From Hormiphora californensis (Eukaryota; Animalia; Ctenophora): DNA of 64,000 bases. Shown here one piece after another: positions 6,739 through 16,982 of the stretch. A model generated the notes under the pieces. That model was not told where the DNA came from. It searched no databases and was given only the letters and a program-made list of their open reading frames with translations. Where the stretch lies: positions 2,294,001 to 2,358,000 of the forward strand of contig CM035355.1 in assembly GCA_020137815.1 (NCBI GenBank), given 5' to 3'. Position 1 is the stretch's first letter. The number at the start of each line of letters is the position of its first letter. A program made the position numbers and the translations under genes.

Positions 6739-9700
6739 ATGCCATACAGTTCAACGTATAACGATGCCAGGTCCGGGGGAACATACAACTCTGCTAGTAC
6801 AGGTGCAGGTGCAGGAGGGGGAACTTTTAACTCTGCCGGCAATATCCAAGCTAGTCTGGCTAATATGACTCAAGTTGGCTATCAGCCCTACCCCCAACGA
6901 CCCCACAGGTGTGTGTGTATTTGTACATCTTATTGACTGTAAACTCTAAGTAGATACAGGGGGGACGGGGGTATTATTATCTGGTTTATTCCGTATTGTA
7001 CCTCTTAGCAGTCTGCTGGCAGACATAACTTTTTCCAATAACACTTAATTTTAATTTCTCTCCCTCAGGAACCGGCCAAATTTTAACACTGTCAAGGCGA
7101 AGAAGCCCTTTACCTGCGCCAACAAGCACCCCGTAATGGCACTCAAAGAACTGTGTCCCGCTGCTAGTAAGTTATAATTCTCACTTTCTCTATCCACATC
7201 ATATGAAACTAAGCACCATCTCTTTCCACCATTTCTCTCTCCAAATTATATTTGAAACCATCTATCTTTCTCCAGCATTCGAGACGGCGTGTTCCTATCA
7301 TGTCCCAGGCGGTGCAGCAGTTGTTATGTCCTGTAAAGTTAACGGTGTTGTTTACCAAGGCGAGGGTACTGACTCCAAAATTGCCAAAGCTATTGCTGCT
7401 CACAAAGCCCTAGCAGGGATCAAGGTATGTTCAATAAGTTCATAGCGCTCTCTCCCACAATATTGTAAATTACTTACCTTATTATGGATTACAATATCTT
7501 CTTCTCAACCCCCTCTGTCCATGACAACCTCCACTCTCCTGCAGGCTAACGAGTTTGATTTGGTAAAGAAGGTTTGTGACTATGCTGAACAGAGACAGCT
7601 TGTTCTGGATCGCATCTCAAAATGGCAGGATGACCAGGTTAGTTGTAGTACTGAGCTGTCACATCATTGACCTGGCATGTACTGATTTTACCAGATAGGG
7701 TCATTTAAGCAGTATCAAGCACATGATAATATGTATCAAAAATAGGTTTTATCTCGCGTTACATCTGTCCCTCTCACACCACCTATTTCCAGGCGAAGAA
7801 GGCGGCTGCCAAGGAGGAAGTAGAGAAGAGGGAAGAGAGGGAACAGCAGGAGAGACTGGAGCGTGCGGAGAAACGGAAACTAGCTAAAGCGGAGACAGAT
7901 CAGCAGGCATTCCTTGCAAAACAAGCTCGAGAGATGGAGAAGGAGAATAAGAGGAAGAATGCTGCTGCTGCTGCTGCTGCTGCTGGAGAGGCTATGGAGG
8001 TGGGTGAAGGAGGGGATGCCGTGGTGAAAAAGGTATTAAATCATCTTCCGTTCACTCACGAGCACTCACACTAGTGTCGACTAAATCGCAATGACGAAAG
8101 TCGCGATAGTTCTTTAGTGTTTAGGGTTCCACAATCCACACCCGACACTCCTAGAAGAATAAGAAGAAGGTACTCTTCGTTCTTCTTACTGGCTATCCTA
8201 ATTAGTCCTAAATTTCTATCTACTGTTATATATAATACTCTATCTATTGTTATAATGTTAATATTTCATCTGTCAACAGCTGAAAAACAACAACGGTGCA
8301 GCCTCTACGACGCTAACTAACAACCCCAACACATATGGACATCTTTTGCATCGTTATGGCCCTGAAGTATCCGAATCATCTGCTGTCATTGATCCGGTAT
8401 GTATGATTAGTTAGTTTTCCATATATTGAGTGGTGGTAGAACCTTTTATTAAAAATTGGACCCAGTATTCCTTCAATTTAAATGATATTATAGGTAGCAC
8501 ATGTTAGCAGTTAGATAGTTTTATAACTTTAGTTTGAACCCTTTCAGAAAGGAAATGGTGGCTGCGCGCCGCTCTTCAAAAGCACCCTTACTGTGCAAGG
8601 ATTCACATTCGAGGCCACCGCCACATCCAAGAAGGGTGCCAGGAACGCGGCTGTCCTGGCTGCCTTTACCCAGTTCGAGGTGAATCCTCCCCCAATTGTC
8701 CACGAGAAGAGGAAGAAGACGTGGCAGGACCAGAAGAAGAGAACGAGGAACAAGAACCGACCCCAACCCGGTGAAGAAGGTAAGATAATTATATTTGAGA
8801 TGGATTATATGTAACCTCTCTCACTGACAAAGACACGACAAACAAGACACCCACGATTTACCAGGATACTGGGGGTAAAGGGTTTTGCCTTCGGGCCGGG
8901 TAAATATGGGTTCCGGTAAAAAGGGGTCCGACTGTATACATCACTTTGACGTCACTGTGACATAAACACGCCCGGTCATTACACTGCAACACTAGGTTAC
9001 GTCGAGCGGGCACCCTTTGTCCCTCCCCCCGCCACGGAGTTTCCCGACATGATCGCGGAACTGTCCTGGAAGGTTTTCGACGAGATCCTCGCTGAAGTTC
9101 CGGAGATGTTCCGGGCACGACGGAATGTCGTGGCCATTGTGAAGGTATTTGTGTGGCAAGGTTATTGGGTGTAATATTTCAGAGAAGAAGAAGGGGGAGG
9201 ATCACATTATACACGATGATTGATTGAAATGTGATCTCTTCCCTTCTTCTGGTAATAAATTGTACACAAAGTCAACTCTCGGTTTACCAAGTCTCTCGAT
9301 CTATTCAAATGCTGCCATATTTCTGGTCAAATCGAGGGTTGACATTGAAATTAACACCCAAATCTTGTTCACATAAATCCAAATTTACATTAAAATCCAA
9401 TCAGCTCTGATCAATGTAACCCCATTAATTGTTTAATAAATTAATTAATTATCCCTCTATCTAGGTTGAGGGAGAGGCCGTTATAGACAACTGTGAGGTG
9501 GTTGCCCTTGGAAGTGGGACACTCTGTATGTTCATGGACAAAATGGATGGTAGCGGAGAGCTAGTAGAGGATCTAACCGGTATGTGGGTTGTCTCACAAA
9601 GACTGTCCTCTCCGCGTGATTACAGTCAGAGCCTGACAATAAGTGGGAGATTTTTGGAGAAACATATTGTTTTTAGATCGAATAATACTGACTGACATCT

Positions 9701-14800: not shown

Positions 14801-16982
14801 TCCTCATCCCCTTCCTCAGCCAACAGTCTGGTAGTAAGGAGTTTCCGAAGGTACCTACTCGACCAAATTACAGAATTGTGTCACGAACGAGAGAGCATCT
14901 TTTACGTTCCGGGAGGTACCAAACAAATCCAGGTATTCACCAGGAACCGACCGAAACAAGTAAACAACCAATCAGAACTCGGTATTTAGGTCACGTGACT
15001 GGTTATTAGCCAATCAGGGACCAGTATTTCCTGATTCGGTCGGTTCCTGGTATTCACCCAGTCTGAGAAACCCCCAACTCCCTCTGTTTGCCCCTTATGT
15101 CCCCTTCTGTGGCTCAATTCTTTAAGCCTCTCTCTCTAAACCCCTACATGCTCTCTTTCTCTAACATCTTTCTTTCTAACACTCTGCAACCCCCTCTCTC
15201 AGCTGAAAGAAGGCATCCGTTTTGTTCTTGTCCTGTCTGTGTCCCCGATGGGAGACTGCAAACTGTTCCAAGGTGATCAATATCAAGTGTACCGACACTG
15301 GGACCCTGCTGATGACACTACACTACCCAAATCTAAAAAGATCAAGGATCAGTATGTTGATTTTGATACCGAAATGCTTGGAAAGGTAACAACATCATGA
15401 GCTCTCTCTCCTACTTATCTTATTACTTGTCCCACTACCCCCGGGGTTAGTGGGGCAGTTGCAATTGTACCTCACCACCCCTACCCAACTATGTACTACT
15501 ACCCAGCTACCACCTACCCCTAGCACTCCACCTTTACAGTTGCAATTGTACCACCTCTCCCCCTTCCCCTTCCTCTCCCCTACCCCACTACTACAACCCC
15601 TAACTCTCCCCTCCCCAGTTGCAATTGTACCGACCCAACCCCACTACCGCTACCTGTACCTCATATCTCCCCTCCCCAGTTGCAATTGTACCGAAGGATG
15701 AAGTCCAATAAGGTGATGGATAATTGTCTCCAAGTAACCCCGGAAACAATGCCCTATGTTACTGACATTGTGTCCGCATCAGACAAGATAGCACTACGGA
15801 ATGCTGTTGGATATCAAGGAGCACTACTTTCAACACTTCTCCTATCTTCTATTAGATTTACTGATATTTATGTGTCAAGGTTGGTTGGGCCAGAACTCCT
15901 GAAAATGAAGCAGAATCTGTATTGTAACCGTAGTGCTACAACAAAGTAATACATCTTGTTTCTACTACAATAAATTAGTAAAGTTCCAAAAGTGCTAAAA
16001 CCCGAACTGTTCAGATCATTCCACGCGGAAGCACTAGAGCGTGGTCTTGTCGAGAGAGTCCGTGGATACATTCCCGATCCTCCACCCCGGATCCGCCAAG
16101 TCAAATGGAAGCCAGGCCGGATGGCTGATATGACTTGTGTTTATGGATTCATCTGGTCTCTGTCTCCACAGAACCCCCTACCCGTTGAGATCATCAGAAC
16201 AGATCTAGGTATGTAACATGTTTAGTGTTGTGTTTTCCGCGTTACTACGTGCAATGTCAGATACGGATTACGGTATGACCCAATTTCCCTCCCACTTGAT
16301 TTTCTAATCCAAGAGGCGGTACACCTTACTCAAGATTTGACTATCAGTTATTTCTCAAATATTTCTCTCCAGGCCGTGCGATATTGACCGAGTGTCTACA
16401 GGATGATGATCCTAGAAGTGAAGGGTATGTGGATAACAACTAATCCACCTAATTAATTAGTAATTGATTAATTAGTAATTGCTTTAGTTCCACCAATTCT
16501 CCCCTAAAACCAAATTTTCTTCGCAGGACACTTGATATAGAGGTAGAATCTGCTCTTCCCTCTCGATATAGCTCTTTGGAATACTATAAAGAGTTTTGTA
16601 AGGTTCAAAACCTTCTTGAGAGACCGGTATGTCGTACTAAAACACAAGGATTGTCCCTATACTAGAAATTAAGATACAACGGGCTCGACATAAATCCTCA
16701 TTGGTTTTTATACTGTTAATCTTTTGTGAGCTTCAATCAAACAGGCTTCTTTCGAGAATCCTGGAAGCTCTTAATTAAATAAGGAAGTGGGTAATTAGGC
16801 CACTAATGGGCGGTTAATTAGCTACACCAATTAGTTAATTATACCAATTACAGGTATCCCTGTTTCGTGTTACAAAGATCTCTGCGTACAACTATCAGAA
16901 GGAGAAACAAACAGTGAAGGATTTCTACAAATCAGCCGGAATGGGAACTTGGCCAAACAGAATTGACAAACTCAACTTTTAA
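11808..16982 (+). CDS. ADAR/ADAD-like protein 2: RGG/Pro-rich N-terminus, degenerate dsRBDs and a dead deaminase domain (multi-exon)
   Basis: Exon 1 is RGG/NRGG- and Pro-rich. dsRBD-like segment VVARVNNIEFSGKG...AAEKI. The deaminase reads VVAVGCGNK...RDCTANSLVVRSFRRYL, VSPMGDCKLF, SASDKIALRNAVGYQGALLS and ends AGMGTWPNRIDKLNF* (TAA 16980-16982). Confidence 0.87.
14941..15049 (+). mobile_element. 109-bp hAT-like MITE at the start of an intron
   Basis: TIR CAGGAACCGACCGAA...TTCGGTCGGTTCCTG with 8-bp TSD GTATTCAC at 14933-14940 and 15050-15057. Confidence 0.85.

Follow-up and report, generated by a model that had tools for sequence, protein, structure and literature searches.

Why would an animal keep two adjacent genes of the ADAR family if neither product can edit RNA? 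The question is raised by a 64,000-nucleotide stretch of the Hormiphora californensis genome (contig CM035355.1, positions 2,294,001 to 2,358,000; hereafter the window), in which two neighbouring + strand genes of this family, here called gene 1 and gene 2, are separated by a gap of 245 bp. When the proteins were aligned to human ADAR2 chains, the positions of H394, E396, C451 and C516 were found to be occupied by T/D/M/P in gene 1 and by T/N/M/A in gene 2, confirming the claim of an earlier note on this DNA that the three zinc ligands and the catalytic glutamate are lost in both genes. By the ADAR mechanism, deamination is impossible for zinc-free domains, and both proteins are predicted to be incapable of RNA editing, because all three zinc ligands are missing from each of them.

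Gene models, catalytic-site residues and transcripts

The coding sequence of gene 1 (6739..11562, + strand, as are all features of both genes) comprised 15 exons (6739-6908, 7069-7166, 7276-7424, 7545-7637, 7793-8032, 8280-8396, 8548-8779, 8996-9144, 9465-9579, 9710-9819, 10056-10150, 10347-10487, 10611-10756, 10984-11267 and 11434-11562) and 755 amino acids, and that of gene 2 (11808..16982) comprised 13 exons (11808-13200, 13338-13474, 13626-13794, 13962-14060, 14208-14356, 14473-14575, 14820-14932, 15203-15385, 15680-15879, 16015-16208, 16373-16424, 16527-16626 and 16854-16982) and 1006 amino acids. Frames and splice sites were intact, as the earlier note had claimed, since neither model contained internal stops over the 28 exons and 26/26 introns (102-320 nt) were GT-AG. 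The two proteins were 25% identical over 636 columns. Six of the 12 intron positions of gene 2 matched those of gene 1 in phase and column (5 exact, 1 off by a column), indicating that the pair arose by duplication at the DNA level; no further ADAR copy was found within the 64-kb window.

The altered residues were T454 (9576-9578), D456 (9712-9714), M507 (10101-10103) and P569 (10483-10485) in the pseudo-deaminase domain of gene 1 (9034..11559), and T683 (14572-14574), N685 (14822-14824), M737 (15248-15250) and A815 (15776-15778) in that of gene 2 (14255..16979), which was delimited by Pfam and alignment. The motifs on which the earlier note had built were all recovered in place: DLTGD in gene 1 (9570-9714) and DCTAN in gene 2 (14566-14824), each interrupted by a phase-1 intron, PMGD in both (10098-10109 and 15245-15256), SPSDK in gene 1 (10480-10617) and SASDK in gene 2 (15773-15787). 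Because the codons of T454, M507, P569, T683, M737 and A815 fall within exons, the replacement of the zinc ligands does not depend on the choice of splice sites. Restoration of HAE, PCG or SCSDK through other exons, a possibility raised in the earlier note, was not seen: no alternative exon coding PCG or [ST]CSDK was present on the + strand of 6000-17300, and the single HAE of that region (16022) was part of the C-terminal lobe. A 36-bp unit repeated 3.7 times (14327-14458) includes the donor of gene 2 exon 5 and supplies extra in-frame donors, which could extend this exon in 12-amino-acid steps.

The gene 1 junctions were based on P0001, a transcript-like relative (a 390-amino-acid frame on a 1515-nt contig) that was the sole match to gene 1 exon 14 among 62 candidates. 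It was 89.5% identical to gene 1 over amino acids 369-755, mirroring exons 8-15, and read through the junctions, including DLTGD, PMGD and SPSDK. For gene 2, RNA contigs were aligned to positions 14790-19050 of the window, and one 528-nt contig of run X1, a mixed-community library described as RNA-Seq, from one study, and the only RNA run with gene 2, joined exons 9-12, skipping introns of 135, 164 and 102 nt and spanning SASDK; the three pieces listed showed 0-1 differences each. Among the junctions that the earlier note had spliced by hand, those of gene 1 exons 8-15 and of gene 2 exons 9-12 were thus borne out, and those of gene 2 upstream of exon 9, including the DCTAN junction, are predicted ones. 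The matches in run X2 were all short and repeat-like; the control ESF1 exons were likewise uncovered, so this run was uninformative on expression. A short intronic repeat (14943-15049 and 29240-29330), matched by many contigs of both runs, is probably a mobile or dispersed element.

Three differences in an X1 contig (two silent and one Y-to-F) were too few for an estimate of selection. Among gene 1 and two cDNAs of the ctenophore family described below (L001 and L002), synonymous divergence (dS) was saturated and non-synonymous divergence (dN) was 0.39-0.64, and hence no dN/dS figure is given. The transcript-like relatives, the spliced contig and the low dN beside saturated dS support expression and purifying selection.

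A ctenophore family and its ancestry

A HMMER scan with P0001 returned six proteins at E<=1e-30, after which the scores fell to those of ordinary ADARs, and a profile search added six more family proteins; one member, the Bolinopsis microptera RefSeq protein XP_063681601.1 (T/E/M/P), is named 'double-stranded RNA-specific editase 1-like'. The family set comprised 14 deaminase domains, those of both genes and of 12 database proteins, with fragments (P0006, P0163, P0014 and P0110) and near-duplicates (P0154 and P0164-P0166) left out, and its residues were numbered after the mammalian ADAR2-like row P0124. Position 394 was T in 14/14 domains, position 451 was M, N or I (11/2/1) and position 516 was P or A (13/1), so that 0/14 kept any of the zinc ligands, as against H/E/C/C in 126/153 aligned domains. 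W523 was replaced by R in 14/14, and position 396 was E, D or N (9/4/1). The loss of the zinc ligands in every domain and the retention of E396 in nine indicate that zinc loss was ancestral and the decay of E396 secondary; the fourfold loss that the earlier note had described in both genes holds as a family trait for the zinc ligands and not for E396. Its proposals of a conserved pseudo-deaminase family and of a single inactivation before duplication were supported, the first by the 14/14 domains without zinc ligands, the second by T394, non-Cys residues at 451 and 516 and W523R in all of them, as well as by the common introns. P0002 and P0005, of the T/D/N/P type, formed a separate subclade in which a long acidic insert follows the PNGD motif, and may represent a further paralogue.

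Of 867 representatives, the best 150 included no orthologue of gene 2, although gene 2 itself, with 106.9 bits against the query, lay above the cut-off of 62.9. The profile search had none either, all 10 of its hits from 6741 candidates being of the gene 1 type by their N-termini or motifs.

The relationship to ADARs is not a matter of chance, since Pfam A_deamin matched P0001 with E=1.8e-39. Structure models covered P0001 and P0167, and the ADAR fold of gene 2 was assigned by alignment. The AlphaFold2 model of P0001 had the ADAR deaminase fold (pLDDT 90.2; Foldseek TM 0.74-0.81 to solved ADARs), and that of P0167 had two folded domains of the type that binds double-stranded RNA (dsRBDs) and a long helix. 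In the family alignment the base-flipping loop G487-E488-G489 was shortened or replaced in 14/14 domains, R510 and the TWDG dimer helix of ADAR2 were not retained, and the inositol hexakisphosphate (IP6) contacts R401, K519, K662, Y668 and K672 were kept in 14/14; the roles of these elements are taken from PMC11120146.

Gene 1 has a first dsRBD (7124..7424; Pfam dsrm E=6e-4 on exon 3) that does not retain KKxAK, and the P0167 model showed the alpha-beta-beta-beta-alpha order at this domain. It is followed by a long charged helix (7545..8032, aligned to helix 158-213 of the P0167 model) and by a second dsRBD (8337..8683; Pfam dsrm E=0.0085) that retains KKGAR at 8629; KKxA[RC] was present in the second dsRBD of 8/10 gene 1-type rows. 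Gene 2 carries a low-complexity arm (11958..12932), G/N/R-rich (9 RGG, 25 RG) and then proline-rich, without a Pfam match. Behind it lie two degenerate dsRBD-like segments (13146..14032; Pfam dsrm E=0.067 on exon 2) that have no KKxAK-type motif and scored 2.5 and 7.7 bits against the family profiles.

In an attempt to place the family, a tree was built by a careful search under the LG+C20 mixture on 368 columns of 30 rows, hand-chosen out of 155 domains, with the ADAR1, ADAR2 and ADAT1 rows labelled by domains and motifs and not by names, and with five ADAD-like rows, four of which were named ADAD1-like or came from a bivalve. The ctenophore family formed a clade (support 100/99) lying inside the ADARs against the ADAT1-like rows (100/100), the ADAD-like rows grouped with the ADAR1-like rows (100/98), and a quick tree of 63 rows agreed. 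Uniting the family with the five ADAD-like rows was rejected by the approximately unbiased test (p-AU 0.00098, or 0.012 when six degenerate proteins, described below, were included). T375 and R455, both of ADAR2 type, were each found in 13/14 family domains, and a constraint placing the family beside ADAR2 proper gave p-AU 0.4; the point of attachment is not fixed by the tree. Gene 1 and gene 2 as sisters gave p-AU 0.17, which leaves their duplication undated.

Six degenerate ADAR-like proteins (P0012, P0019, P0021, P0032, P0057 and P0129, four of them sampled in the tree) were sister to the ctenophore family at 100/98. Five of the six were single frames on long ENA contigs, and some have RG-rich N-termini; glass sponges would be a guess for their source, prompted by the intron-poor genomes of that group. 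The six share with the family the loss of R400, R522, W523 and C451, and C516P in 5/6, but not T394. The dsRBD profiles gave mixed signals on this link, as the profile of the sister proteins put four ctenophore rows at the head of the outsiders and that of the second family dsRBD ranked two of the six first, whereas that of the first dsRBD did not. The link may be due to long-branch attraction. The two genes might belong to a fourth branch of the ADAR family that is separate from ADAD, was inactivated long ago, reaches beyond ctenophores to these intronless proteins with their shared residue losses and dates to the earliest animals; in this ctenophore it would have split into a reader of double-stranded RNA (dsRNA) and a partner that forms granules, both encoded by one operon. 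We consider this extended reading rather doubtful.

The operon-like run and other features of the window

Seven + strand genes with gaps of about 245-326 bp occupy positions 6739-29640, gene 1 being the first and gene 2 the second; the others (17277..29640, with starts and stops assigned by eye and the end of the last gene approximate) are ESF1, a TRM8-like methyltransferase, SURF1, ALG6/8 and HMG-CoA synthase. An acceptor-like AG lies 2 nt before the ATG of gene 1 (6735..6736), a likely trans-splice site, and another lies behind a pyrimidine tract, 7 nt before the ATG of gene 2 (11799..11800). By a strict test, a pyrimidine-preceded AG <=7 nt from the ATG was found at 5/7 starts of the run (6 with the upstream site of gene 2) against 66/988 ATGs of the window, and no strong splice donor was present in the six intergenic gaps, including that of 245 bp. 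The 5' ends of the two family cDNAs (L001:1-9 and L002:1-26) bear the motif found at the 3' end of the ctenophore spliced leader (PMC8527503); in L001 it is followed by the 2-nt context that also precedes the ATG of gene 1. These leaders and the Bolinopsis member point to a ctenophore as the source of the window. No leader-RNA gene motif was found within the window.

The short gaps, the AGs before the ATGs, the missing donors and the leaders on family cDNAs together suggest that the run is an operon-like, trans-spliced unit, and this layout makes the co-expression put forward in the earlier note likely. The alternative is a compact genome in which each gene has a separate promoter; the available part of the ctenophore genome paper (PMC8527503) does not mention operons.

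Elsewhere the window contained a satellite of 33-bp units (about 60 copies, 3313-5300), an array of 34-bp units (26 copies, 48202-49090), a tandem pair of similar inosine-uridine nucleoside hydrolase frames on the - strand (59297-62037) and, at 43671-45215 and 46229-47773, a reverse-transcriptase frame (+) and a 514-amino-acid frame of equal length (-) without a Pfam match.

Possible roles and known systems

We give about even chances to a granule scaffold role for both proteins, comparable to that of ADAD2 and arisen separately by convergence. An ADAR2-type ancestor would have lost catalysis once and then duplicated. The gene 1 protein would hold dsRNA through its second dsRBD, and the gene 2 protein, its dsRBDs decayed, would contribute the RGG-rich disordered arm. 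Arms of this kind enter RNA granules, and RG repeats are bound by Tudor proteins. As in ADAD2, the inactive deaminase domain would offer a surface for protein docking, probably with an inositol phosphate still at its core, and a single trans-spliced, operon-like unit would likely yield both mRNAs. In favour of this reading, the decayed dsRBDs and disordered arm of gene 2 match the anatomy of ADAD2, in which the dsRBD is dispensable and RNF17 is recruited to P-bodies by the intrinsically disordered region and the deaminase domain (PMC10040813).

Several points weigh against it. The scaffold role would be one by analogy; RG repeats numbered 0-1 in 9/10 gene 1-type rows, most having none; the IP6 pocket had lost R400, R522 and K629 in 14/14 domains, making IP6 binding uncertain; and the gene 1/gene 2 pair may not be general, as the searches for gene 2 orthologues came out empty. 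The KKGAR retained by gene 1 would suit equally well a role as editing regulators of the kind of nematode ADR-1, ADAR3 or squid ADAR/D-like, binding dsRNA and either competing with the active ADARs of ctenophores or tethering them, a possibility that we rate below the scaffold role. The two folded dsRBDs of the family and the KKxA[RC] of the 8/10 rows agree with it, as do the editing of RNA by ctenophores and their three H/E/C/C ADARs (PMC9989829, Table S2), the tethering of ADR-2 by ADR-1 through dsRBDs (PMC6182170) and the block of sqADAR2 by sqADAR/D-like in vitro (PMC10278661). The dimer helix of ADAR2 and several RNA-contact residues are lost, however, though tethering through dsRBDs would be compatible with this, and gene 2 has a 440-amino-acid low-complexity arm in place of a recognisable dsRNA-binding motif. 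The heterodimer suggested in the earlier note would likewise have to form without the known dimer surface of ADAR2.

It is a good deal less probable that the domain was rebuilt as a zinc-free or re-sited enzyme, or as a ligand sensor. The replacements are conserved (T, M, P and R523), E396 is retained in 9/14 domains and many members have a His-Cys pair ahead of SPSDK, but there is no equivalent metal triad, E396 has given way to D or N in the two genes of the window, the His-Cys pair is missing from gene 2 and the base-flipping loop has been lost. We consider it very unlikely that the proteins are genuine ADAD orthologues whose fast evolution and long branches led to a wrong placement, in which case ADAD would date to the first animals. 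The domain plan and inactivity are the same, T occurs at 394 in one published ADAD row and gene 2 was flagged as a long branch; yet under the mixture model the ADAD-like rows nested with ADAR1 and the constraint uniting them with the family was rejected with and without the six sister proteins, and W523 was kept in 8/8 and R400 in 7/8 ADAD-like rows against 0/14 family domains. The ADAD analogy of the earlier note thus survives at the functional level and not as common ancestry. Decaying pseudogenes or an artefact of manual splicing, to which the start of gene 2 RNA support at exon 9 and the empty orthologue searches might point, are scarcely credible given frames open over 28 exons, transcript-like relatives, a spliced gene 2 contig and saturated dS with low dN.

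Grice and Degnan (PMC4323055) classed ctenophore ADARs by domain count, and the Mnemiopsis leidyi proteins ML095514a and ML095516a, with two dsRBDs, partial deaminase matches and, in one, divergent dsRBDs, are near-adjacent by number and possibly the counterparts of gene 1 and gene 2, a lead taken from their descriptions. Like Bolinopsis XP_063681601.1, they are labelled ADAR2-like, and the accessible texts do not mention inactivity; a review reports ADAT1-like expansions in ctenophores (PMC5558901). In the literature searched, inactive ADARs of ctenophores were not reported; Kohn et al. 2015, Moroz et al. 2014 and the tree of Grice and Degnan could already bear on novelty. As family members carry ADAR2-like labels, published counts of ctenophore editing enzymes would fall. 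The family also offers a natural experiment on the role of the ADAR deaminase fold and its IP6 pocket once zinc is gone, and Mnemiopsis provides a tractable model within the group.

ADAD1 and ADAD2 resemble the two proteins in combining a dsRBD with an inactive deaminase domain, in their disordered N-terminus and in being paired in vertebrates. ADADs, in contrast, are sister to ADAR1 and mostly keep H394 or a Cys (in rows such as HVKS, HVKA, HIKD and HVCC; PMC9989829), whereas the ctenophore family has lost all three ligands with a signature of its own, has two dsRBDs and lies outside ADAR1 and ADAD; the available text of the same paper places ADADs in bilaterians only (protostomes and deuterostomes) and gives three M. 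leidyi ADARs, all H/E/C/C. Caenorhabditis elegans ADR-1 has at least two dsRBDs, is altered at the four catalytic positions (D, I, gap, T; PMC9989829) and coexists with an active ADAR, but its replacements are others and it tethers that ADAR; it is likened here by features, not being among the tree rows. Squid sqADAR/D-like also has two dsRBDs, is inactive in assays and misses RNA-contact residues (PMC10278661), but it keeps one zinc ligand (C451S, C516A, E396A), is linked to molluscan ADAD-like proteins and is a single gene. ADAR2 (human PDB 1zy7/6vff; Hydra ADAR 9dp5) shares with the family the fold (TM 0.74-0.81), two dsRBDs, T375, R455 and the C-terminal IP6 contacts, but not the loss of the zinc site, GEG loop and TWDG dimer helix or W523R. 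ADAT1 differs in being a lone deaminase domain with an intact zinc site, where the family has two dsRBDs. An independently inactivated ctenophore clade suggests that ADARs were converted repeatedly into non-catalytic RNA-binding proteins, from the deepest animal branch onward. Dead ADARs are a known kind, and the earlier reports found concern bilaterians; the ctenophore clade is separate from ADAD.

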